DNA from: Tortispora ganteri
Taxonomy: Eukaryota
Length of the DNA: 64,000 nt
Direction of reading: 5' to 3'
NCBI GenBank assembly: GCA_003707115.1
Contig: PPNB01000005.1
Coordinates: 310,001 to 374,000 of the forward strand
The stretch's first letter is position 1, and every line of letters begins with the position of its first letter. The notes beneath the pieces are model-generated. The model saw only the letters and a program-made list of their open reading frames with translations, had not been told where the DNA came from and did no database searches. Positions 51,556 through 64,000 of this stretch are shown here, piece by piece. The position numbers and the translations under genes are program-made.

Positions 51556-54500
51556 ATGGTGAAACCTCTGCCAAATGCCCCCACGACCCCCGAGAGGTCT
51601 CGACCCGCTCCTCCAATTCCTCCAAAAATACCTCTTGCTTATCAAGAACATATAGCAGATTCAGTATCGAGAGATCTATTGCAGAATGATCCTGAACTAG
51701 CTACTTTGGAGTACACAATACCCGTATCTGATTCAGTCTCACCCGCACATTTGCCCAGTCCAACCGTTAGACCACTGCCACCACAGCCACCAGCTCTTCC
51801 GATCGAACTACAGATTCCTCTACCACAGAGCTCAATGCAATCGAACTCATGGGAATTGCACGAAATACCAACGCCATCTTATGCGGCACCATCTCATGTC
51901 ACGCCAATAGCGCTCCCCGCACTGCCTACTATCACACAGCATCCTCGCGCTGTCTTCAGTGACTTCCAAGATGACCTGCCGACTTCCACGTCACCCTCGT
52001 TTTTATTATACGATTTGCCGCCACCTGTTTCACATGCAACAGCGAGCTCGATATCTCCTTCTGAGCACTTCGCAGTACATACATCTCCGCCCTCGGATCA
52101 GTATTTACGCGACTCGTTACCACTACCCACCTCACATCCTCACCAAGCAGCCGATGCCCCAATATACTATCACAGACCTATACCCTCGCAGAATGTGCCA
52201 GATATTGCTCAATTATACTCAAGCGTTTTCCATCATCCTCAATATGCTCCATGGGACAACCCCGATCTTGAGTATGAGTACGAAAGCTCTCTATTGGGGT
52301 CGCATCCAAATCCAACAGCTGATCTCGTATCTGTGTACGCTGGATCTGAAAGCGAAAACAACTATCCACAACAGTACAAGTCATTAAAACTGCCTTCGTT
52401 ACCGTACTCTCAAAATTCAGGATCATCCTGCTACTCACAAACAATATCCTCATTTTCTGACAAGAAACGACGGAGCCATATCCTCCGCGACGTATCAGAA
52501 AATAAAATTCAGAAGGCTTTAGAACAAATATCGCTTGAAAAAGATTACAAGGCAGTGAATGAAGGCTCTGCTACCAGAATAATGCTAATAGAAGAAGCGG
52601 CAGAATATAATACTACATCTACGGCGGATCTCTGGTCACTCAGCCACTTGTTCAAGCAGCTGTGTAGTTTTCTCGCCGACAGATCATTTACATCTGAAAC
52701 ACTGCTGACTATTATTGAAATAATGGTGCGCTCTGTTCACCCAATGATTACTTATCTGCGCAGGAGAGATATTGCTCAAAGTATTTACTCGTCACTACTG
52801 TTGTCTGATGCATTTAATCAGTTCGACGAGAATGATCTTAATCTTTTGACTATCAAGACAGAAGCAGTTCCTACAGGTGTTATCACGGCTTTGATGAGAT
52901 CTTACTCTTACTCATCAGACAGCACTCTGAGTTCCTATTCTTATTTAGATAGATTGGAATCGCCTTTATCAGATATCGAGCGTGATGCTATACTTGCTTT
53001 ACCTCGATCAAATCCGTCCTGGCATCAATTTTGGAAACTTTCTCTTGATGATTCTGCATTGACAGGTGAATCTAAAGCGGAAATGATACGGCAAAATATT
53101 ATTCATGAAATAATAACTACAGAAGAAGACTTTATTCGCGATTTAAGAATTATGACTACTGATATCTCAAAAATGTTCCATACAATACCTGCATTTAATG
53201 AAAATAGCGAATTTTCAAAAAATACATTTGAAGCAATGAAGCCTTTGCTAAAGTGCAATGTCAACAACTTGCTTATTCCCCTAAAGAGAGTACAACTTCG
53301 AGAGAAAACCTCAATATCTGCTATTGGTGATATTATGCTGGATTGGGCTAATCAAGCGAGACCTATATTTATGGCTTATGCAAAATGTTTTGTTTTTTCA
53401 TCCAGCTATATTGACAAAGAAAGAAAATTGAATACAGTTCTATCAACGCTTCTCGATGAAATAAGTATTAGAAAAGAAACCGCTCCGCAGAACTGGCGCC
53501 ATTATTTTACGCGAGTGAACTTTCGACTTCCACGCTATATACTACTCCTGGAAGCTCTTTTGAAGAAGACCAATACCGGGTTGCCTGACCATGACTACTT
53601 GAAGGAAGCGATAGTTGCTATTTCATGGATGGCTAAAGAATATGATTCTCAGATTGATAAATATGTGAACCAGAACCGCCTTGAAACTTTGGCCAACTCA
53701 CTTGTTTGGCGCCCTAAGAACTTATACGTGAATCTTGATTTGAATCTTCCTCAGAGAAAGATACTGAAAGCGGGAAATGTCAAACGACGCGGTAACAAAG
53801 GTATAGACTGGATTGATTCTCATGTGATACTATTGGACAATTACTTTCTTCTTACTAAAATTGAAGAATCTGGTAATGAAGACAGTAAATACGTTGTGAC
53901 GAAGTCACCTATTGCCATTGATTATTTAGCTATTGATTCTGCTTCTCAAATTGTTCAAAGTAAACCTTTGACAGAACAAGCTAGATTAGCAATATATAGC
54001 TCACCTGTTAGAAGCAGCAATAAACAAGGCGACAACTCTATGCACCAAGTTACCAGTATTCGGCCAGATGAAGCGCAAACTCTCTACACGTTAACTCTGT
54101 CCAATCTTGCTGATCGTCCTTCACGATTTTCTTCAAGTTTGGTACTGTATTGGAAAACAGAGATAGAGAGAAATAACTGGAAGGATGCTATCATGATTGC
54201 TAAAGAGGCGTACAATATCAACTGCCGGTCAAACCATGCCATATTCAAATTAGGATTAATATCGAACGGTGCATTATCATACGCTTCAGGAGCTCCTAAG
54301 TTAAGGGTATACGAGCGCGGTACAGCTATTGATGAAGCTCTCACTGATTGGCGCAATGCTGTTTTAGCTATCGATGAACCAGAGAAGGATACTGAGCTTG
54401 ATGATTTGAACTCAGAAAACTCAATAGACAAGCCATATTTGACGCCATTGAAGATATATTGTGCTTGCTCTGTTGAGCTTCCAGGTAAGGATGGGACAGC

Positions 54501-55653
54501 TCTATTTTTTGGACTCTCAACTGGTTTATACGTGAGCCCTGGAAATCATCCATCTAGATGGAAGCCGTGTTATATCAATAACTTCCACAACCTGACTCTA
54601 GTATATAGCTTGCAGTATATCCAGGAACTTCGAACCATGTTTATGATAGCTAACGTTAACGGCAAATGCATGTTTTTAGCTTATCCTATTGGCGCACTTT
54701 GTCCTGTTGGTTACATATCGGTTAATGCTTCACGTGAACCTTTGGAGAAATCTTTGGGTGTTGATGATGAACTCATAACCTCAAGCCTAGGTCTTTCTGC
54801 GTTTAAGCTTGCTAAATCTCACGCATCTGGATACTTCAATGTTGCTAAAGTAAATGGTCGTTGGCTAGCGTTTCATGGTCATCGAGATAAACTGAATATG
54901 TCGGGGACCATACATACAGTTTTTCGGGTGGTGTTGGATTTAACCAACAGTAAAGACGAATTAAAAAGCACTATTGATTATGTTACTCCTTCGTGTATTC
55001 ATCATTTTGCTATTGATGACGAGTTCACCATTCCTCATAATTGTGCAGACATTAATTGTTTTGCGGGTCCTACTGTTATTGTTAATGGACGCACAAAGTT
55101 TTTTCTGTACAATGTTGACACCAAACAGTTGAGATCTATTCACGAGCAGTTTTCGCTTGGATTAGACAATATTAAGCGGTATATTGAATCTGGAAAACCG
55201 TGCGCTGTTTTCAAAATAGGTAAAAATGCCTCTTCTCTATCGCTTGGTGTGCCTAATGACAAATATGTACGGCCTCGTTCGAACAGTAAAGGGGAATTCT
55301 CGAGCCCGAAATGTGAACTCTTAATATGCTACTCTACATGTGCTGTGTTTGCAGATAGGTTTGGAGATATAGTGTCAAATACGTGTATTAGATTTGCAGG
55401 ATATGCGAACCATGTTGCCTATAAATTTCCTCATGTGTTTGCATTTAGTGCAGAGTTGTTAGAAATATGGGATATTTCTACACAAAAACTGGTTCAGGTT
55501 GTGACAGGGCGAGACATGAACTGTCTTTTATCCAATAATCAAACACTTAGAGGATATTCTGTTGGTACAGAGAGGATTATTGGCCGTATGGCGCACCCTT
55601 TAGCGGCAGAAAAGTACATTATTTTTGAGTTGCAGCCTATAAGGCGCAAATGA
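51556..55653 (+). CDS. TUS1: Rho1 GEF with DH-PH-CNH architecture (Tus1/Rgf3-like)
   Basis: RQNIIHEIITTEEDFIRDL, RLPRYILLLEALLK, VILLDNYFLLTK, CNH-like end; Pro-rich N-terminus. Confidence 0.75.
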   Translation: MVKPLPNAPTTPERSRPAPPIPPKIPLAYQEHIADSVSRDLLQNDPELATLEYTIPVSDSVSPAHLPSPTVRPLPPQPPALPIELQIPLPQSSMQSNSWELHEIPTPSYAAPSHVTPIALPALPTITQHPRAVFSDFQDDLPTSTSPSFLLYDLPPPVSHATASSISPSEHFAVHTSPPSDQYLRDSLPLPTSHPHQAADAPIYYHRPIPSQNVPDIAQLYSSVFHHPQYAPWDNPDLEYEYESSLLGSHPNPTADLVSVYAGSESENNYPQQYKSLKLPSLPYSQNSGSSCYSQTISSFSDKKRRSHILRDVSENKIQKALEQISLEKDYKAVNEGSATRIMLIEEAAEYNTTSTADLWSLSHLFKQLCSFLADRSFTSETLLTIIEIMVRSVHPMITYLRRRDIAQSIYSSLLLSDAFNQFDENDLNLLTIKTEAVPTGVITALMRSYSYSSDSTLSSYSYLDRLESPLSDIERDAILALPRSNPSWHQFWKLSLDDSALTGESKAEMIRQNIIHEIITTEEDFIRDLRIMTTDISKMFHTIPAFNENSEFSKNTFEAMKPLLKCNVNNLLIPLKRVQLREKTSISAIGDIMLDWANQARPIFMAYAKCFVFSSSYIDKERKLNTVLSTLLDEISIRKETAPQNWRHYFTRVNFRLPRYILLLEALLKKTNTGLPDHDYLKEAIVAISWMAKEYDSQIDKYVNQNRLETLANSLVWRPKNLYVNLDLNLPQRKILKAGNVKRRGNKGIDWIDSHVILLDNYFLLTKIEESGNEDSKYVVTKSPIAIDYLAIDSASQIVQSKPLTEQARLAIYSSPVRSSNKQGDNSMHQVTSIRPDEAQTLYTLTLSNLADRPSRFSSSLVLYWKTEIERNNWKDAIMIAKEAYNINCRSNHAIFKLGLISNGALSYASGAPKLRVYERGTAIDEALTDWRNAVLAIDEPEKDTELDDLNSENSIDKPYLTPLKIYCACSVELPGKDGTALFFGLSTGLYVSPGNHPSRWKPCYINNFHNLTLVYSLQYIQELRTMFMIANVNGKCMFLAYPIGALCPVGYISVNASREPLEKSLGVDDELITSSLGLSAFKLAKSHASGYFNVAKVNGRWLAFHGHRDKLNMSGTIHTVFRVVLDLTNSKDELKSTIDYVTPSCIHHFAIDDEFTIPHNCADINCFAGPTVIVNGRTKFFLYNVDTKQLRSIHEQFSLGLDNIKRYIESGKPCAVFKIGKNASSLSLGVPNDKYVRPRSNSKGEFSSPKCELLICYSTCAVFADRFGDIVSNTCIRFAGYANHVAYKFPHVFAFSAELLEIWDISTQKLVQVVTGRDMNCLLSNNQTLRGYSVGTERIIGRMAHPLAAEKYIIFELQPIRRK

Positions 55654-55762: not shown

Positions 55763-56932
55763 CTATTTCATTTTCGGTTTGTCGTTTTTCCAGGAACCTT
55801 CAAAAACATGTTGGACAAAGGCAAGAGGATGATCAATATCTTGAGCTCCCATTTGCTTTACACCAGGAGAGAACGATGTGATTGGTAAAACTAGGACGTC
55901 GGCAAAGAGAGTTGGTTCTGTTAGTCCAGTGAAGTTTTCAATGCCAACAGCAGATTTAAGGCCACTTTTGACGGGATCATTGAGATATTCAAAGACTGAA
56001 TCTGTCCATGAGCCCGGACCTGTCCATTCCATAATATCGCTGCCGAAAGATTTGCCCTTTGCAAGCAGGAGGTTGCCGTTATTCTTCCTAGTGAGATACT
56101 CGTCTGTGATTTTAGCGACAATGTCTCTAAGTACCGGGTGACCTGGTTTGGCCTGAATAGTCCATTGACAAAATTGTATTCTGCGAGCGTACCAGTCTTT
56201 CCAGTCTGGTCTATCTGGATCAGCTTCGATGCCTATGACGAGTCCTATTTTACTTGCGTCCATTTCGACTGGGATCCAGTCAAGGATAGGTTTGAGGTCG
56301 AAAGTGTCTATATCGGTGTATATACCGCCGCGGGCAAGAAGAACAAGATATCGGAAGAAGTCTGCTCGTAGGATCGGGGAGGGCATTTTCTCGTATGCTT
56401 CAACCACATTAGGCATGTGTACATAAAGGTTTCTGATCAGTGCGAGGGATGTTTCATCTGTGAGGACTTCATGAACAAAGTCAGGGTTAAGTACATCCCA
56501 TGACTTAACTTCATCTTTTCGTTTAAATTCCGGGTGGGTTGGACGTAGTTTAGCCGTTTGCCATATAAATGAAGGAAAATAGCTATGTGGTTCATAAGGG
56601 AACTGGTATGCTAACTGTTCGCGCGGAGATAGGCCATCTGGCGGTCGACGGAGCTGTGCAATTTGTCGGTTAAGACGATTTTTTTCTGTTTCAAAAGAAA
56701 TACGTTCGCTTTTAATTATATCGCGGACTTTTCGAAGTTCTTGGTCTTTAGCCAAAAGTTGTTTTGAGCAACTTTTAAGCTCGCGCTGCGAAATTTGTTC
56801 AGCTTGCCTACGAAACTGCGCACTTGAGTAAAAAATATAGGCGCCAAACATTATAATAAGACATACTGTAAAAAAAAGATTTCTTTTAGATGAAGGACCG
56901 CTAGAGAGGCGGACGCCTTTGAATGCGGCCAT
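55763..56932 (-). CDS. OCH1: Golgi alpha-1,6-mannosyltransferase, GT32 (Och1/Hoc1 family)
   Basis: Type II TM, IWQT, ADFFRYL, GGIYTDID, GIEADPDRPDW..WYARRIQFCQWTI, VLPITSFSPG; OCH1 versus HOC1 not resolved. Confidence 0.8.
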   Translation of the reverse strand: MAAFKGVRLSSGPSSKRNLFFTVCLIIMFGAYIFYSSAQFRRQAEQISQRELKSCSKQLLAKDQELRKVRDIIKSERISFETEKNRLNRQIAQLRRPPDGLSPREQLAYQFPYEPHSYFPSFIWQTAKLRPTHPEFKRKDEVKSWDVLNPDFVHEVLTDETSLALIRNLYVHMPNVVEAYEKMPSPILRADFFRYLVLLARGGIYTDIDTFDLKPILDWIPVEMDASKIGLVIGIEADPDRPDWKDWYARRIQFCQWTIQAKPGHPVLRDIVAKITDEYLTRKNNGNLLLAKGKSFGSDIMEWTGPGSWTDSVFEYLNDPVKSGLKSAVGIENFTGLTEPTLFADVLVLPITSFSPGVKQMGAQDIDHPLAFVQHVFEGSWKNDKPKMK

Positions 56933-58107: not shown

Positions 58108-59316
58108 ATGACCCCGCTTAGCGAAAAATTCAGATCAAATATGAAAGCGGTATTGTCCTTCTTGCTCAATCTTGTGGGGAAATTCTGGATGGTTATTGCT
58201 ATTGGTATATTTATATTACTTGCATGGCTCTTTCCTTCTGTTGGAAAGACAGACGGCGCAATTCAATCTCAATATACTATCTCTTATCTTGGTGTCGCCC
58301 TCATTTTTTTCTTCACTGGCCTCGGAATTGACCCCAAACTACTATACAAACATCTTAAAGACTACAGACTGCATCTTCTATTACAGATATACTGTTTTCT
58401 ATTTACATCTGCCGTCATATATGGCCTAGTAATGGCTATTGTAGGTTCAGGCACAATGAAAATAGATCCGCTTATATTGGTCGGTCTTTTAGCTACAGGA
58501 TGCTTACCAACCACCATAGGGTCTAATGTGGTCATGACCAGAGCGGCTGACGGTGACGTTGCCGCTACTGTCATAGAACTCCTAATAGGAAATTTGATTG
58601 GTCCATTCCTTACTCCGGTGCTTCTTTTCGATATGTACCTCGACAACGCTGGCTACCTGTCCCAATACAAGCCGTCCGGCTCTGGAAACAGTCTTACTAC
58701 CGTATACCGGCATGTCATGATGCACATGGGACTATGCTTGTATATTCCTATTGCTGTCGGCTTAACTATTCGCGCATTTTTTAGCAAACAAGCAACATGG
58801 GCGTGCACCAAGTTATACCTAGCCAAAGTCAACACCTTCATCCTTACACTGCTCATATGGATGACGTTCTGCAACGCCTTTGCAGACGGAGCGATCTACA
58901 AATTATCAACAGAATCAGTCCTGGTAATGGTTTTCCTTTCTTTGGGACTTATTGCGCTTTTCTCGATTCTGATCTTCCTCATTTCTTACTACCCGCCCAA
59001 ATCTAAGTTTATTGCAAAGTTCTGGCCCGGATTTGACGACAAAGTCATCGTCTCTCTAGCATTTTGTGGACCCGCCAAAACGCAAGGACTCGGAATACCG
59101 CTGGTATCGTCCATGTGGGCCAATGAAAATCCCGGATTTGTATCAACTATCCAATTACCGATAGTCCTTTATACGACCATGCAAATCTTTGTCGCTAACT
59201 TTAACGTTCTAATCTACAAATCCTGGATTAAACGGAGGAAGCGTGATGCTGAGCTAAAAAGTGTTCCTTTAGACGCTCGCCAAGCTGATTCAGTTGATTC
59301 AAACGCCAGCCGATGA
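58108..59316 (+). CDS. RCH1: SBF/SLC10A7-like transporter (Rch1 family)
   Basis: VALIFFFTGL, GCLPTTIGSNVVMTRAADG, IGNLIGPFLTP, FCGPAKTQGLGIPLV. Confidence 0.85.
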   Translation: MTPLSEKFRSNMKAVLSFLLNLVGKFWMVIAIGIFILLAWLFPSVGKTDGAIQSQYTISYLGVALIFFFTGLGIDPKLLYKHLKDYRLHLLLQIYCFLFTSAVIYGLVMAIVGSGTMKIDPLILVGLLATGCLPTTIGSNVVMTRAADGDVAATVIELLIGNLIGPFLTPVLLFDMYLDNAGYLSQYKPSGSGNSLTTVYRHVMMHMGLCLYIPIAVGLTIRAFFSKQATWACTKLYLAKVNTFILTLLIWMTFCNAFADGAIYKLSTESVLVMVFLSLGLIALFSILIFLISYYPPKSKFIAKFWPGFDDKVIVSLAFCGPAKTQGLGIPLVSSMWANENPGFVSTIQLPIVLYTTMQIFVANFNVLIYKSWIKRRKRDAELKSVPLDARQADSVDSNASR

Positions 59317-59411
59317 GTTAACCTTGCCGATACCGCGGTCTTCTCATTTTAATGTTCTACATCTTCCCAATTAGGAAGGTCATTCCTGTGTGCCTTTTTA
59401 GAGTTGCCTTC

Positions 59412-59806
59412 CTTATCGCCTACCTGACCTTCTTCATGGCCATTGCAGAAGCGCTTTCTCAATTATCTAATATATTCAGAATAGTAGCTGGCCGGAGAAT
59501 ATTATGGCGATTATTCAAATTGAAATCGTTCTTGTGCTTCCTAAGTTTTCCCGATAATTTTTTGGCTATGCTGCTCCGAAAGCACACATGAACTTTAACT
59601 TATGTCCTTATCTGACTTTACGGCAACCTTATCAACCCAATCAGATGTTAAAAACTCCGAACCTCAGGCTCGACGACGCTCACTATTTGTCTTTCCATAA
59701 CTGCCTTTCTAATACATCTTTGGCGTCTATTTGACTTTAGTCTATCTCTTCGGGTCTTGCCTTAGGTGGGAGAGCACTATCTTGGGAAATTTCAACTATA
59801 TAAATA
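59412..59806. promoter_or_regulatory. GATA-site-rich promoter with CCAAT and TATA box upstream of the urea-carboxylase-like gene
   Basis: CTTATC at 59412, 59607, 59628; TTATC 59463; GATAA 59553; CCAAT 59637; TATATAAATA 59797. Confidence 0.55.
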
Positions 59807-59858
59807 CTCTACGGACATTTCGGCCGCATACCATTATCTATATTCACATTTACCGCCG

Positions 59859-62800
59859 ATGTCTTTCTCTACGCTCAAAACTGTTCTCATAGCTAATCGT
59901 GGTGAGATCGCGCTCAGAGTTATCAATTGCTGCAAAGCCCACGGACTTAAATCAGTTGCTGTTTACTCCAAGGAGGACTCTGATTCGCTCCATGTATCGG
60001 AAGCAGATGAAGCTCATTTACTACCAGGCACAGGCTCTGCCGCCTATTTAAACACTGAAGTGATTATACAAATTGCAAAAGAGACAAAAACAGATGTAGT
60101 TGTCCCCGGATATGGTTTCCTTAGTGAGAACGCTGAATTCAGTGCCGCGTTGGCTTCCAATGGGATCGGCTTCGCGGGCCCTGATGCTGATTCAATTGAG
60201 AAATTTGGTCTCAAACACTTTGCTCGTGAACTCGCCGTTAAAGACAAAGTTCCGGTTGTCCCCGGATCTGAGCTCATTGAAACAGAAGAAGAGGCCGTCA
60301 AATTTGCTGATTCAATTGGCTACCCTATTATCCTTAAAGCTACTGCTGGCGGTGGTGGTATGGGACTTCGCGTATGCTTCACTTCCCAAGAGCTCACCGA
60401 GAATCTTTCGCAGATCAAGAGCCGTGGTGAGACACTTTTTAAGAATTCTGGTGTTTTTATTGAGAAATACGTGCAAAATGGTCGCCATATCGAAATACAG
60501 GTTTTTGGCAACGGTGCTGGCGATGTAATCGCCGTCGGCGAACGTGAATGCTCTATACAACGAAGACATCAGAAGGTCGTCGAGGAGACCCCTAGCCCTT
60601 TTATTGCTCATCCTAACTATAACAATGCTCAATTGCGTGAGAAGATGAGCAAATGTGCTATTGCTCTATTATCCTCTGCGAAATATAAGTCTGCAGGTAC
60701 GGTGGAATTTCTGGTTGATGACGATACTGCAGAATTTTACTTTCTTGAGGTTAATACTCGCCTTCAGGTTGAACATGGTATCAGTGAACTTTGCTATGGT
60801 GTTGATTTGGTATATATGATGCTTCTGCAGGCAGATTACGAACTCTCCAATAAGGGTGGAATTCCTGCAGATCAACTGAAGTCATTCATTGACATTGTCC
60901 CTGGAAAGTCAATTGCCGAACCAAAGGGACATGCAATTGAGGTACGCGTATACTCTGAAAACCCCGTGAAAAACTTCCAACCCTCTCCTGGAGTTTTGCA
61001 TAATGTAGAATTTCCCCCAACTGGAAAAACTTCCAAAGGCGTGGTTCGCATTGACCATTGGATCTCAACAGGATGCAAAGTTTCGCCTTATTTTGATCCC
61101 TTACTCGCTAAGGTGATGGTCTGGGCTCCTACGAGAGATGAAGCGATCACATTGATGACTGAAACTCTGGCTGCAACAGTTATACAAGGCCCTCCTTTGA
61201 ACTTGGAATACTTAAGACAAGTCATTGCTGACCCTCACTTTTCTTCCGGAAATACATTAACTAGTTTCTTGGATAAAAAGTTCACTTTTGAGCCCAAAAT
61301 GATCGAGTTTCTTTCCAACGGTGCTTACACTACCGTGCAAGATCTGCCTGGAAGAATTACCTGTAATGGCGGTATTCCTCTTTCTGGCCCTATGGATAGC
61401 CTATCATTTACTACTGCTAATTCTCTTGTTGGTAACCCCGTTGAAACTGCAGCACTTGAAATAACTTTTGCTGGTCCTTCTATTTTGTTTCACTCGGCAT
61501 CAATAATTAGCTTATGTGGTGGTACGTTTGATGTGACTATTGATGACGAGGAAGTGCCTATGTGGACTACCCTGTCTATTGCCAAAGGATCGAAGCTTCG
61601 TATTGGCAAGGCTTCGGACAAAGGTTGTCGTGCTTATCTGGCTATTAAAGGTGGCCTTCCCGGTGTTGCTTTTTACTTGGGATCGAAAAGTTGTACTCCT
61701 ACACTTAATCTCGGAGGCCACCAAGGCCGTATTATTCTTCCTGGTGACTGCTTGGACATTGAAGCTCAAGAATCTGACACTAAAACTTCTGTCGTGTACA
61801 CACTACCTACTAGATGTATTCCGCCGTTCACCGAGCCTGGAAAAGTGTGGACTATTAGAGTTATCCCTGGTCCTCATGATACTGAAGAAATTTTGTCAGA
61901 TGAAGGACGTGCTATTATTTATGAATCAGATTGGGTTGTGAACCACAACTCTAACAGAGGTGCTCTCAGATTGGATGGACCTAAGCCGAAATTTTCAAGA
62001 ACAGGAGGAGGAGACGGTGGTCGTCACCCCAGCAACATTTTGGAATATGGCTATCCTACCTGTGGACTGAGTTTCACTGGCGATTCTGCTATTCTTTTTG
62101 GTGCTGATGGCGGTACCCTGAGTGGATTTATTTGTGTAGCCGTTCCAGTCGAGTCGGACTGGTGGAAGTTCGGTCAAGCTAAACCGGGCGATATTCTGCG
62201 ATTTACTCCTACTTCTCGTGTCGCTGCTATACAACTTAAGCAGAAAAGATTAACGTGGAACAAATATATCGCTACTCTACCTTCTGCCGAGAATGCTAAA
62301 GCATTCAATGATGAAGCTTATTCCAATGTGGAAGTTGATGGCACGAGTTCTATCATGTATTCCAGACCTGCTGGTAACGATTTGCCTTTCGTTGAATATC
62401 GGCGTTGCGGTGAATCAATGATATTAGTTGACTTCGGCATTCTTGATTTTGATTTAATGAATAATGGCAGACAGTATGCAATGGATCTTGCTCTTCAGAA
62501 GTTGCCGGAATCCTCAAAGGCGAAGAAGGCTATATATCGTGTTGAATGTCTTAGTGGGTCGCTTAATGTCAGCTTTGACCCTCTCAAGATAGATGTGCGC
62601 GAGATGTTAGAACAACTGATGCATATTGAAAGCGCATTACCTCCATCTCGTGAACTTAAGATCCCGTCTCGCATATTTCACTTCCCTATGGTGTTTGAAC
62701 ACTCTGCACTGCGAGCGTGCATCGAAAGGTATGTCAAAACTCAAAGGCCGCATGCACCCTATCTTCCTAACAACATCGAGTACCTGATGAAGACGAGCGC

Positions 62801-63641
62801 TATTGAGACCTTTGAGGAGTTTAAGACATTCGTAATTGATCAACCTCAAGTTGTGACTGCTGTGTCGTTTTTGTGTGCTCTGCCGTTGTACGTACAGGTC
62901 GACCCCAGGAAGAGATTCATGTCTGCGAAGTATAATCCTGCGCGTACATTTACTCCAGCAGGTTGCTTGGCTACAGGTAGCTTGACTAATAGTATTTACT
63001 CTGTTGATTCTCCTGGTGGATACCAAATGTGGGGTATGACGCTTCCTGGTTCGTGCTGGAACACGTTCAGCAGACTGCAAGGATTTCCCCCTGGCCAACC
63101 ATGGCTTATGAATTTGTACGACCAGATTGTGTTTTACGAGGTTACAGAGGAAGAGCTGAACTCTCTTAACGAACAACTGATTACTGGACGATATACTATA
63201 AAGTACGAAGATTCAGTCTTTGATTTCTCTGCATATGCAGACTTGGTTGAGTCTACTAAGGAAGAAGTAGCCGACCTACGTGCGCGCCAGTACAAAGCAT
63301 GCGAGAGCGTCATTGCGTTGGATGCCGAAGATTATGCTCTATGGGAGAAAGAGAAGGAGGAAAGCAAGCTGAGCAAAAGCAGCGAAGAGGGATCGCTAGT
63401 CAACAATCCCAATGCGGTCAAGGTGACTTCACCGATGAATGCGAGTGTATGGAAGATACAGGTTAAACCAGGTGACAAGGTGACCAAGGAGACTGTCTTA
63501 ATGATCCTGGAAGCGATGAAGATGGAAATTCCTGTCCGATGCGAAGACCTAAAGGGGGAGATGACTATTGCTGCGATTATGTCTGAAGAAGCAGATGTTG
63601 TTTCATCTGGTGATTTGCTTTTGATTGGTCTGACAGAATAA
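59859..63641 (+). CDS. Stand-alone urea-carboxylase-like biotin enzyme (BC, two carboxyltransferase-type domains, BCCP), LamA-like; no allophanate hydrolase domain
   Basis: VLIANRGEIA, PGYGFLSEN, GGGGMG, RECSIQRRHQK, EVNTRLQVEH, TTVQDLPGR, HPSNI, SPGGYQ, biotinyl EAMKM; protein starts directly at the BC domain (ATG 59859). Confidence 0.92.
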   Translation: MSFSTLKTVLIANRGEIALRVINCCKAHGLKSVAVYSKEDSDSLHVSEADEAHLLPGTGSAAYLNTEVIIQIAKETKTDVVVPGYGFLSENAEFSAALASNGIGFAGPDADSIEKFGLKHFARELAVKDKVPVVPGSELIETEEEAVKFADSIGYPIILKATAGGGGMGLRVCFTSQELTENLSQIKSRGETLFKNSGVFIEKYVQNGRHIEIQVFGNGAGDVIAVGERECSIQRRHQKVVEETPSPFIAHPNYNNAQLREKMSKCAIALLSSAKYKSAGTVEFLVDDDTAEFYFLEVNTRLQVEHGISELCYGVDLVYMMLLQADYELSNKGGIPADQLKSFIDIVPGKSIAEPKGHAIEVRVYSENPVKNFQPSPGVLHNVEFPPTGKTSKGVVRIDHWISTGCKVSPYFDPLLAKVMVWAPTRDEAITLMTETLAATVIQGPPLNLEYLRQVIADPHFSSGNTLTSFLDKKFTFEPKMIEFLSNGAYTTVQDLPGRITCNGGIPLSGPMDSLSFTTANSLVGNPVETAALEITFAGPSILFHSASIISLCGGTFDVTIDDEEVPMWTTLSIAKGSKLRIGKASDKGCRAYLAIKGGLPGVAFYLGSKSCTPTLNLGGHQGRIILPGDCLDIEAQESDTKTSVVYTLPTRCIPPFTEPGKVWTIRVIPGPHDTEEILSDEGRAIIYESDWVVNHNSNRGALRLDGPKPKFSRTGGGDGGRHPSNILEYGYPTCGLSFTGDSAILFGADGGTLSGFICVAVPVESDWWKFGQAKPGDILRFTPTSRVAAIQLKQKRLTWNKYIATLPSAENAKAFNDEAYSNVEVDGTSSIMYSRPAGNDLPFVEYRRCGESMILVDFGILDFDLMNNGRQYAMDLALQKLPESSKAKKAIYRVECLSGSLNVSFDPLKIDVREMLEQLMHIESALPPSRELKIPSRIFHFPMVFEHSALRACIERYVKTQRPHAPYLPNNIEYLMKTSAIETFEEFKTFVIDQPQVVTAVSFLCALPLYVQVDPRKRFMSAKYNPARTFTPAGCLATGSLTNSIYSVDSPGGYQMWGMTLPGSCWNTFSRLQGFPPGQPWLMNLYDQIVFYEVTEEELNSLNEQLITGRYTIKYEDSVFDFSAYADLVESTKEEVADLRARQYKACESVIALDAEDYALWEKEKEESKLSKSSEEGSLVNNPNAVKVTSPMNASVWKIQVKPGDKVTKETVLMILEAMKMEIPVRCEDLKGEMTIAAIMSEEADVVSSGDLLLIGLTE

Positions 63642-63737
63642 ACAGACGCTTAGATAATAGTAACTACATTAGTTAAATATTATTACAATAGGACTTGTAA
63701 GTGAATGAAGTGAATATACAAAGTTTATGTAAGCTAT

Positions 63738-64000
63738 TCAAGCGTTTACTTCTGCAAGCAGCTCATTGATCTGTTTCGCTTTGATGACGGCATCAGGAAG
63801 ATCGCTGTGAAGACAGACTGTGACTTCAGGCTCGTTAGCAAAATCGAATTGGATTTTCTTGCCACTCTTAGCGTCGACAGTGTCTTCGTAGAGGATCTGA
63901 CGGAGTGCGTCCTTCACTTGGTCGGTGGGCCTGCCTCCGTAGATGGTGAGGGACATGATAGAGCCGTCATCGGCAAAGTTAACGTCAGGGTAGGCCTCTG
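63738..64000 (-). CDS. lamB: LamB/YcsF (PxpA, 5-oxoprolinase subunit A-like) protein, 3' part; runs off window end
   Basis: Manual translation EAYPDVNFADDGSIM...TVDAKSGKKIQF...TVCLHSDLPDAV...INELL* matches the LamB/YcsF C-terminal pattern (E.FADR.Y..DG.L ... TICVHGD.PGA). Confidence 0.78.
   Translation of the reverse strand, partial: EAYPDVNFADDGSIMSLTIYGGRPTDQVKDALRQILYEDTVDAKSGKKIQFDFANEPEVTVCLHSDLPDAVIKAKQINELLAEVNA

Follow-up and report, generated by a model that had tools for sequence, protein, structure and literature searches.

The lactam catabolism genes lamA and lamB of Aspergillus nidulans are controlled by AmdR, as stated in the accessible part of a published account (PMC8016842). 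PxpABC is an established 5-oxoprolinase and, according to the available portion of a recent preprint, Pseudomonas putida requires a PxpABC paralogue, PP_2920-2, for growth on butyrolactam, keeps its 5-oxoproline and butyrolactam enzymes as separate PxpABC paralogues with specific inducers, and builds the butyrolactam enzyme from three pxpABC-type subunits, biotin going unmentioned in that portion (bioRxiv 10.1101/2021.12.09.472016). The PxpC/PxpB homologues MSMEG_0435-0436 are described, in the part of the report at hand, as binding the biotin of BCCP without the urea carboxylase residues and as having no urea carboxylase activity in vitro (PMC13012033). In the K. lactis urea carboxylase (KlUC), Lys1605 has been proposed to act as the general base when the carboxyl group is transferred, again from the accessible text (PMC5770610).

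The locus described here closes a 64,000-nucleotide stretch of Tortispora ganteri DNA (the window) and consists of an intact lamA-type gene, encoding protein P0001, and a convergent LamB_YcsF gene. To our knowledge, no study has elucidated the chemistry by which the fungal lamA/lamB pair supports lactam utilisation. Judged by sequence comparison, the two yeast genes are probably the budding-yeast counterparts of that pair, forming a putative biotin- and ATP-driven lactam opener. In A. nidulans a BC-CT-BCCP protein of roughly 1240 aa (P0001 has 1260 aa), called a putative urea carboxylase, is joined by a LamB_YcsF protein of roughly 250 aa. The arrangement differs: the yeast genes converge across a 96-bp spacer, whereas the A. 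nidulans genes are said, in the 1992 work of Richardson et al., to be divergently arranged.

Two bacterial arrangements are also comparable. LamB is homologous to PxpA, and the CT_A_B and CT_C_D domains to PxpC and PxpB, so that PxpABC and PP_2920-2 resemble the yeast pair in composition as well as in ATP-dependent lactam opening, which is predicted on the yeast side. However, PxpABC consists of three free subunits with no biotin carboxylase or BCCP, whereas the yeast PxpC/PxpB domains are fused between BC and BCCP and carry a urea carboxylase-type Lys (KYNPAR) instead of the PxpB-type RR.TPRT motif. Split bacterial operons of BC, BCCP, PxpB, PxpC and LamB genes have the same five modules and a CT without the loop Asp discussed below, but on separate polypeptides, while the yeast places four modules on one protein and LamB in a separate convergent gene. 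For these operons, no published biochemistry was found in the literature searched.

In the proposed mechanism, the biotin carboxylase module of the LamA-type protein would use ATP and bicarbonate to make carboxybiotin, and the PxpC/PxpB-like carboxyltransferase domain would move the carboxyl group onto a small lactam at its ring nitrogen; 2-pyrrolidinone ranks first among the candidate substrates, followed by 5-oxoproline. Lys1024 and Tyr1047 would act as the catalytic pair, as in urea carboxylase. N-carboxylation would activate the ring for opening by the metal-dependent LamB hydrolase, and the resulting carbamate would shed CO2 to leave an omega-amino acid (GABA or glutamate) with ADP and phosphate. 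In such a carboxylase-then-hydrolase scheme, LamB would therefore fill the place of allophanate hydrolase in urea amidolyase. A point against this reading is that carboxylation is not chemically required for butyrolactam opening, because P. putida uses a PxpABC paralogue for it. Within an earlier interpretation of the locus (hereafter the preliminary description), the non-urea enzyme, the identity of LamB and its recurrent association have stood; a physical complex, the N-carboxy intermediate and the substrate are what we infer.

The two genes and their surroundings

Table 1. Features of the T. ganteri locus, in window coordinates.
Feature	Position	Strand	Basis
lamA promoter region	59317..59858	+	sequence motifs
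lamA-type gene, protein P0001 (1260 aa)	59859..63641	+	ORF, translation, Pfam
Biotin carboxylase module, residues 6-472 (Biotin_carb_N, ATP-grasp, Biotin_carb_C)	59874..61274	+	Pfam
CT_A_B subdomain, residues 505-783, PxpC/KipA-like	61371..62207	+	Pfam PF02626, E 8.6e-75
CT_C_D subdomain, residues 846-1061, PxpB/KipI-like	62394..63041	+	Pfam PF02682, E 1.6e-12
Active-site loop AVSFLCA, residues 1001-1007	62859..62879	+	pairwise alignment to 3VA7, 5I8I; column comparison
Lys1024, KlUC Lys1605 equivalent	62928..62930	+	alignment
BCCP (biotinyl) domain, Biotin_lipoyl, residues 1189-1255	63423..63623	+	Pfam PF00364
AT-rich spacer between convergent stop codons, 96 bp	63642..63737	.	sequence
lamB / LamB_YcsF (PxpA-like) 3' end, last 86 codons and stop, cut by window end	63738..63998	-	Pfam PF03746

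The lamA-type gene occupies a plus-strand ORF (59766-63641) whose first ATG, at 59859, gives P0001. The resulting N-terminus, MSFSTLK, is identical to the start of the Tortispora caseinolytica orthologue P0003, which is 93% identical over residues 480-1160, and the nearest relatives of both genes are T. caseinolytica proteins (93-94% identity). Sources label relatives of P0001 'urea carboxylase'. A single chain carries BC, CT_A_B, CT_C_D and BCCP in that order, with Biotin_carb_N at residues 6-113, CPSase_L_D2 at 121-322 and Biotin_carb_C at 361-472; no amidase or AH_C domain was detected in P0001 by Pfam, in contrast to the Dur1,2-type proteins P0254, P0265 and P0269. The BC residues that are invariant in 19 yeast homologues, including E297-H306 (EVNTRLQVEH in P0001), are kept, and the biotinylation motif LEAMKME is intact, with the biotinyl Lys1221 encoded at 63519-63521 and L1217, E1218, M1220, K1221, M1222 and E1223 invariant across the same 19 homologues. 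The CT_C_D domain is unusually far from its Pfam model, scoring only 48 bits on PF02682, where full-length Dur1,2-type fusions and urea carboxylase-like representatives reach 102-137 bits and the truncated P0297 and P0300 reach 64.7 and 72.1 bits.

On the opposite strand lies the 86-aa fragment P0002, whose Pfam hit to LamB_YcsF spans profile positions 161-238 of 239 (E 1.4e-8; 35.1 bits, cut-off 22). Aligned along all 86 residues, it shares 94% identity with the C-terminal end of P0123, a complete LamB of 249 aa from T. caseinolytica. The family-invariant residues E164, D168, C225, H227, S228 and D229 are kept in this fragment, the N-terminal two thirds of the protein falling beyond the window end, and the T. 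caseinolytica orthologue carries all of the family-invariant residues. Single contigs from two DNA runs of two studies extend past the window end and span 59300-64000 or 59321-64000, so the two-gene arrangement does not stem from a misassembly peculiar to this record; among RNA runs, none containing the locus was found. The preliminary description had proposed a 1260-aa BC-CT-CT-BCCP enzyme with intact EAMKM and no amidase domain, lying 96 bp from a convergent LamB/YcsF-like gene; ORF and Pfam analyses bear out both halves of this picture, and the profile searches it had suggested matched CT_A_B, CT_C_D and LamB_YcsF.

The LamB partner raises an alternative in which the pair is a 5-oxoprolinase, a fused eukaryotic counterpart of PxpABC serving metabolite repair of spontaneous 5-oxoproline and not the use of external lactams; this differs from the lactam-utilisation reading in substrate only. 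Bacterial LamB/YcsF proteins, several of them labelled 5-oxoprolinase subunit A, share 43-50% identity with LamB, and the best NCBIfam matches of P0002 are PxpA models of the very system whose 5-oxoprolinase activity is established. However, the accessible text on A. nidulans places the lam genes under AmdR, together with the catabolism of omega-amino acids and lactams (PMC8016842), and the separation of 5-oxoproline and butyrolactam paralogues in P. putida, as given in the available portion of the preprint (bioRxiv 10.1101/2021.12.09.472016), also speaks against it. Furthermore, the lamA promoter region, in which TATAAATA lies at 59799-59806, contains three minus-strand GATAAG cores (59412, 59607 and 59628), a number of at least three being reached in 0.9% of 542-bp windows across the 64-kb record. 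These cores may point to nitrogen-catabolite (GATA-factor) control of the lamA-type gene and would suit nitrogen scavenging slightly better than housekeeping repair. Taken together, a dedicated 5-oxoprolinase appears unlikely, if still a serious candidate.

Loop state and membership in the urea carboxylase family

A second alternative holds that P0001 is a stand-alone urea carboxylase whose product, allophanate, would pass to an allophanate hydrolase encoded elsewhere, and that its LamB neighbour is unrelated. In its favour, P0001 aligns end to end with KlUC (PDB 3VA7 and 5I8I; E about 1e-248) in the same domain order, its best NCBIfam match is the urea carboxylase model TIGR02712 (EC 6.3.4.6), relatives bear the name in their sources, and the catalytic pair is kept as K1024 (Lys1605) and Y1047 (Tyr1628), Lys1024 being invariant in 19 yeast rows and 26 fungal rows. 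KlUC and Dur1,2 follow the carboxylase-then-hydrolase logic predicted here. Nevertheless, P0001 scores 1229.7 bits on TIGR02712, under the curated equivalog cut-off of 1303.85 bits. The urea carboxylase loop GLGDV[YF]LG reads AVS-FLCA in P0001, with a one-residue deletion, so the equivalent of KlUC Asp1584 is deleted. This Asp reportedly has a role in urea binding, a finding credited to Fan et al. in 2012.

The presence or absence of the Asp loop itself splits the family, both in the alignment and in the trees. Of 99 alignment rows, 38 have the Gly-Asp loop and 61 lack it, and all three Dur1,2-type representatives (P0254, P0265 and P0269) are among those with it. In a FastTree analysis of the CT domains of the 99 rows, all 38 Gly-Asp rows and P0277, which reads GE, form a 39-row Asp-type clade (support 99), whose members include the bacterial proteins named as urea carboxylases as well as the Amidase+AH_C+UC fusions P0254, P0265 and P0269. 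The window gene falls instead among 21 yeast-like rows that form a clade of their own (support 100), whose sister is formed by the Capronia protein P0067 together with P0249 (98) and whose side of the tree also includes 18 other Pezizomycotina rows and Kwoniella. Among these Pezizomycotina rows is the Aspergillus homologue P0075, which shares the Asp-less loop and which we take, from its genus and length, to be the A. nidulans LamA orthologue. An IQ-TREE analysis of 52 rows agrees, with a branch that sets the Asp-type rows apart (SH-aLRT 98) and the yeast rows supported at 100. In the CT region, identity between the yeast clade and the Pezizomycotina proteins is only 36-41%, and the yeast loop residue is Ser where theirs is Gly. 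Amidase or AH_C domains were found by Pfam scan in 9 of 26 representatives; the seven of these nine that are in the trees (P0254, P0265, P0269, P0279, P0280, P0299 and P0284) all belong to the Asp-type clade.

Neighbour genes track the loop state as well. Ranked by similarity to the yeast CT domain, the top 71 bacterial loci all have the Asp loop; an amidase-type gene lies within 8 kb in 56 of them (51 at ≥200 bits), and LamB stands beside the Asp-type gene in none of the 71. Conversely, among 20 bacterial LamB loci with fetched 7-kb flanks, 15 have Asp-less CT_AB/CT_CD homologues adjoining LamB and eight combine CT homologues with a match to biotin carboxylase, and no amidase match or GLGD loop occurs within those flanks. 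At the yeast locus, the genes in the 8 kb upstream encode an SBF-like transporter, a glycosyltransferase and a RhoGEF, with no allophanate hydrolase (amidase) among them, and LamB lies downstream. The Asp-less MSMEG_0435-0436 proteins, inactive as urea carboxylase in vitro in the accessible part of their report (PMC13012033), fit the same division. Because the Asp loop is absent, the TIGR02712 score is below the cut-off and the gene is outside the Asp-type clade, these comparisons support the view that the lamA-type gene is neither a urea carboxylase proper nor Dur1,2, and a urea-carboxylating role is improbable. The preliminary description had reached this view from domain content, and the tree it called for agrees, grouping the gene with fungal LamA-type rows and not with Dur1,2 or bacterial urea carboxylases. 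Despite the database name 'urea carboxylase', the yeast pair is a match to the lamA/lamB type and not to a urea pathway.

Pocket differences and recurrence of the pairing

P0001 differs from urea carboxylase at class-specific positions of the pocket, namely the loop 1001-1007, HPSNILE for HPSNxHD at 723-729, and residues 753 and 755, and the yeast clade in turn differs from the other Asp-less fungal rows at several positions (Ser1003, Cys612, Phe712 and Ser755). Because of these two sets of differences, specificity may have shifted within the LamA type, and the carboxylase might act on another amide- or guanidine-type compound (guanidine, creatinine, hydantoin or an acyclic amide), LamB hydrolysing the carboxylated product. 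However, the 8 kb upstream contains no dedicated pathway partner genes, and the sole genetics for the lamA gene type, within the accessible parts of two sources, concerns lactams (PMC8016842; bioRxiv 10.1101/2021.12.09.472016). Such a substrate seems quite improbable to us, and the lactam-opening reading is preferred.

Chance adjacency, with LamB working alone or with other partners, could be argued from the convergence of the genes, because of which no shared promoter is possible, and from the single yeast neighbourhood seen directly, that of the present window, but it deserves very little credence given that the pairing recurs in Trichoderma, in a fusion protein and in the 15 bacterial LamB loci, and that both proteins have equal longest contigs in two or three other yeasts. 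The fusion, P0248 (1512 aa), joins LamB_YcsF, BC, CT and BCCP and lacks the loop Asp; an erroneous merger of gene models could explain it, and no LamB fusion to BC-CT-BCCP was present among the 150 matches listed in 301 Pseudomonadota genomes. In several Trichoderma species, urea carboxylase gene 24 and LamB gene 23 are neighbours, as given in the accessible part of the report (PMC8675399). Together with the Asp-less bacterial CT loci, often accompanied by biotin carboxylase, these cases uphold the earlier proposal of a LamB association. The further claim, that linkage in a changed orientation reflects selection, has few cases behind it, and beyond the window yeast linkage is judged from equal longest contigs and not from viewed neighbourhoods. 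The longest contig listed is the same for the urea carboxylase-like and LamB proteins of T. caseinolytica (2,610,682 bp) and Scheffersomyces coipomensis (2,308,914 bp), and for P0052 and P0167 of a yeast-like genome (7,969 bp).

The gene pair in the window

The gene pair at the end of the Tortispora ganteri window is a new yeast member of the fungal lamA/lamB kind, which has long been known but is biochemically unsolved. Katz and Hynes in 1989 and Richardson et al. in 1992 reportedly described lamA and lamB of Aspergillus nidulans as divergent genes with a 2-pyrrolidinone phenotype. The two genes are cited as AmdR-controlled lactam catabolism genes of this species in a later article (PMC8016842). 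The present analysis adds a means of telling LamA-type and urea-type carboxylases apart, namely a loop containing an Asp residue, the clade and the partner, and it adds a LamB fusion protein.

The preliminary description had read a 1260-aa enzyme composed of biotin carboxylase (BC), two carboxyltransferase (CT) domains and a biotinyl domain (BCCP), with EAMKM whole and no amidase domain, ending 96 bp from a convergent gene whose C-terminus fitted LamB/YcsF. This observation was right in every detail, and the interpretation built on it is largely sound. Translation and Pfam confirm the enzyme, P0001, in which the biotinylation motif EAMKM is whole with its Lys at residue 1221, and Pfam finds no amidase domain in it. 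The N-terminus MSFSTLK is identical to the start of the closest database protein. On the minus strand, the second ORF has its stop codon 96 bases past 63641 and runs off the window end. Its 86-residue product, P0002, matches the LamB_YcsF profile above the cut-off over its final third (positions 161-238 of 239, E 1.4e-8) and shares 94% identity with the C-terminal end of P0123, the complete 249-aa LamB of Tortispora caseinolytica. In an alignment of 18 LamB sequences, the family-invariant residues E164, D168, C225, H227, S228 and D229 are all kept in P0002. Two separate studies each supplied a DNA run in which a single contig spans the region; there are six base differences, and the contigs extend 564 and 5,104 nt beyond the window end, outside which lie about 490 nt of lamB. 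The sequencing runs listed for the locus include no RNA run.

Coordinates of the lamA-type gene, its protein domains and the neighbouring genes (nucleotides of the window, or residues of P0001 where stated)
Feature	Position	Strand	Detail
lamA-type ORF	59766-63641	+	first ATG 59859; product P0001, 1260 aa
Three biotin carboxylase domains in P0001			Pfam
CT_A_B in P0001	residues 505-783		Pfam E 8.6e-75
CT_C_D in P0001	residues 846-1061		Pfam E 1.6e-12
Biotinyl domain in P0001	residues 1189-1255		Pfam
lamB, 3' end	63738-63998	-	fragment P0002
SBF_like membrane transporter gene	58108-59316	+	402 aa; PF13593, E 6.2e-72
DXD glycosyltransferase gene	55763-56932	-	389 aa; Och1-like
RhoGEF/PH/CNH protein gene	51556-55653	+	1365 aa; Rom2/Tus1-like

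The 542-bp region upstream of lamA contains a TATA box 53 nt 5' of the ATG and three GATAAG cores, a number reached in only 0.9% of same-sized windows in the record. These features would at most be in keeping with nitrogen-catabolite control; no Uga3-type CCGN4CGG site occurs in this upstream region. The transporter gene lies on the same strand, 542 bp upstream of lamA. The glycosyltransferase and RhoGEF/PH/CNH genes further upstream are of common yeast types, and nothing obvious connects them with lamA and lamB.

Linkage of the two genes is also found in other fungi. In several Trichoderma species a urea carboxylase (UC) gene adjoins a LamB gene in a group that also includes an MFS transporter and a transcription factor, and the study describing them raises the question of whether this group is a urea cluster (PMC8675399). 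These clusters likewise include a transporter, but of the MFS family, in place of the SBF_like protein encoded upstream of the window lamA. In addition, the listed longest contigs are of equal size for the UC-like and LamB proteins of Tortispora caseinolytica (both 2,610,682 bp), for those of Scheffersomyces coipomensis (both 2,308,914 bp) and for the database pair P0052 (UC-like) and P0167 (LamB; both 7,969 bp). These equal sizes are consistent with linkage and are not observed neighbourhoods.

The active-site loop and the carboxyltransferase trees

P0001 aligns end to end with the Kluyveromyces lactis urea carboxylase (KlUC; 3VA7, 5I8I) at an E value of about 1e-248. Its TIGR02712 score of 1229.7 is nevertheless below the curated cut-off of 1303.85, and its CT_C_D domain scores 48 bits against 102-137 bits in full-length Dur1,2-type fusions and UC-like representatives; the truncated representatives P0297 and P0300 give 64.7 and 72.1 bits. 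Residue alignment of the C/D subdomain places KlUC Lys1605 and Tyr1628 at Lys1024 and Tyr1047, both kept in P0001, and aligns the KlUC loop GLGDVFLG (1581-1588, chain 5I8I numbering) with AVS-FLCA, leaving Asp1584 without a counterpart. Fan et al. in 2012 reportedly found that urea is contacted by Asp1584. Lys1605 is described as the likely general base in carboxyl transfer in a further article (PMC5770610).

Among the 99 rows of a CT alignment, the Gly-Asp loop is present in 38 and missing from 61. It is carried by all three representatives with the Dur1,2-type architecture (Amidase+AH_C+UC), by both representatives with UC followed by a C-terminal amidase, and by bacterial proteins that their sources name urea carboxylase. 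The rows that lack it include all 21 yeast-like rows, which read S/T-F[LF]C, all 19 Pezizomycotina rows with an Aspergillus homologue among them, which read G-F[FYL] or G-W, both Kwoniella rows and the database relative P0248. Further class-specific positions lie near HPSN (residues 728-729) and near 753 and 755. The yeast clade has a Ser/Cys/Phe signature of its own, and a change to yet another substrate is possible. PxpB of the prokaryotic 5-oxoprolinase PxpABC likewise lacks the Asp.

The trees divide along the same loop. FastTree recovers one 39-row clade (support 99) made of all 38 Gly-Asp rows plus P0277, which reads GE, and places the yeast rows in one clade (100) that is sister to the Capronia protein P0067 with P0249 (98), on the fungal side. 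IQ-TREE, run on 52 rows, splits off the Asp-type rows by a single branch (SH-aLRT 98) and again recovers the yeast clade (100) and yeast plus Capronia (98). Both trees are unrooted, and they leave out P0295, whose coverage was too low. The window gene falls outside the Asp-type clade, which holds the Dur1,2-type fusions and the bacterial urea carboxylases, and on the fungal side, in line with the preliminary inference against a urea pathway.

Two CT-only relatives of about 670-690 aa, P0314 and P0329, have degraded catalytic Lys, KYNPAR and SPGGY motifs (e.g. RRGGAPGR, GVSALE) and may be inactive carboxyltransferases.

Partners of the two loop types

A CT-only alignment scan with one genome per prokaryote species gave 71 loci. 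The Asp loop is present in 71/71 and a fused biotin carboxylase in 67/71, and an amidase-type match lies within 8 kb in 56, of which 51 reach at least 200 bits; among the 15 loci without an amidase, nine are contigs under 8 kb. LamB was found at none of these 71 loci. Because the CT scan gave only Asp-type bacterial genes, the Asp-less comparison was drawn from LamB-centred loci, namely 20 loci with 7-kb flanks from 17 of 81 Actinomycetota genomes with PF03746 and from two others, one small matching contig being omitted. Homologues of CT_AB/CT_CD adjoin LamB in 15 of these 20 loci, with a biotin carboxylase match as well in eight (on the opposite strand in two); within the 7-kb flanks there was no amidase match and no GLGD loop at any of the 20.

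Domain fusions show the same division. Amidase or AH_C domains occur in 9 of 26 Pfam-scanned representatives of 50%-identity clusters, which were classed by Pfam architecture only, and all seven of those placed in the trees belong to the Asp-type clade. On the other side stands P0248 (1512 aa), in which a LamB_YcsF domain (8-240) is followed by a 17-residue joint and BC-CT-BCCP; its loop lacks the Asp. In both trees P0248 branches as the sister of the Asp-type clade, and with its closest representative, the N-terminally truncated P0252, it forms a pair that is the sister group of all Asp-type (urea) sequences. P0248 may be a merged gene model instead of a natural fusion. A search of 301 Pseudomonadota genomes for a similar bacterial fusion found none that starts before query residue 218 among the 150 matches listed (231 more lay beyond the list), and an ESM Atlas query with P0248 returned urea-carboxylase-like clusters. 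A metagenome scan based on a full-length alignment, whose patterns came from the BC domain, gave other biotin enzymes at 79 of 80 loci and one UC-like locus (L067), with LamB at 0/80.

Loop, tree and neighbours together yield a simple rule, in which an Asp loop points to urea and a partnership with an amidase, and an Asp-less loop to a lactam-type substrate and a partnership with LamB.

At one actinobacterial locus (L189), LamB lies directly 3' of CT_CD and CT_AB genes. Its CT_CD has the loop IGFVPG and a UC/LamA-like PKYVRPRTYTP motif with Lys, in contrast to the usual RR.TPRT of PxpB, and by these motifs is a probable intermediate between PxpB and the LamA-type CT; the contig stops before any biotin carboxylase would come into view.

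A proposed lactam-opening route and the spread of the gene family among yeasts

For this pair the analysis shows the set of parts, the conserved catalytic residues, the altered loop and the recurrent partnership; we infer a lactam substrate, an N-carboxy intermediate and possibly a LamA-LamB complex. The BC module would supply carboxybiotin, and the CT domain, acting through Lys1024 and Tyr1047 in a pocket that has lost Asp and gained Phe/Leu/Cys, would move CO2 onto the lactam nitrogen. LamB would hydrolyse the activated ring, and the resulting carbamate would give the amino acid by decarboxylation. Urea amidolyase follows a parallel scheme, in which allophanate hydrolase holds the place that LamB would take.

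It is possible, though we would put it slightly short of an even chance, that LamA-type proteins with LamB are a distinct, biochemically undescribed class of biotin-dependent "carboxylate-then-hydrolyse" lactamase from which urea carboxylase proper was derived. In this reading, unstrained ring amides would be opened through an N-carboxy-lactam, with one ATP spent and CO2 recycled, and urea carboxylase would have arisen by insertion of one Asp in the substrate loop and a change of partner from LamB to an amidase; the lack of the Asp in PxpB and the position of P0248 as sister of the Asp-type clade speak for this order. Of related systems, the following is known: growth of P. putida on butyrolactam needs the PxpABC paralogue PP_2920-2, and on 5-oxoproline another paralogue (bioRxiv 10.1101/2021.12.09.472016); PxpA, the homologue of LamB, is thought to be a metal-dependent lactamase, with ATP hydrolysis the part of PxpBC (PMC8453981); and the PxpC/B homologues of mycobacteria hold the biotin of a BCCP in a clamp, "positioned to participate in a carboxylation reaction" (PMC13012033). 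Within the literature collection searched, we found no description of biotin-dependent carboxylation or lactam opening by LamA/LamB or PxpA. The tractable yeasts Ogataea polymorpha, Pichia kudriavzevii and Scheffersomyces carry the pair and offer a clean eukaryotic test system, one fused protein plus LamB, for this still unproven chemistry, which is relevant to the mild hydrolysis of nylon-type lactams.

The best match to residues 480-1160 of P0001 is a 1260-aa protein of Tortispora caseinolytica (93% identity), followed by about 60 proteins at 44-52% identity that are from Saccharomycotina or resemble them. Named carriers are Pachysolen, Candida boidinii, Wickerhamomyces, Scheffersomyces, Meyerozyma, Yamadazyma, Pichia kudriavzevii, Zygosaccharomyces bailii, Ogataea, Brettanomyces and Candida zeylanoides. 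Below an identity gap come Pezizomycotina, Kwoniella and bacterial proteins at 36-41%, and clustering at 50% leaves the entire yeast group as one of 361 representatives with E 1e-30 or better. Relatives from at least 12 budding-yeast genera are labelled "urea carboxylase" or "related to DUR1,2" in databases, and the Asp-loop rule would put right many annotations. In a table of seven species, Strope et al. (2011) recorded Saccharomycotina as lacking a stand-alone urea carboxylase, and neither lactams nor LamB are named in their paper (PMC3073912).

One relative, P0026, is labelled Cerrena zonata, a basidiomycete polypore, and has 50% identity to the query. Its position inside the budding-yeast clade, beside P0006, suggests either a contaminating yeast contig in the Cerrena zonata assembly or gene transfer.
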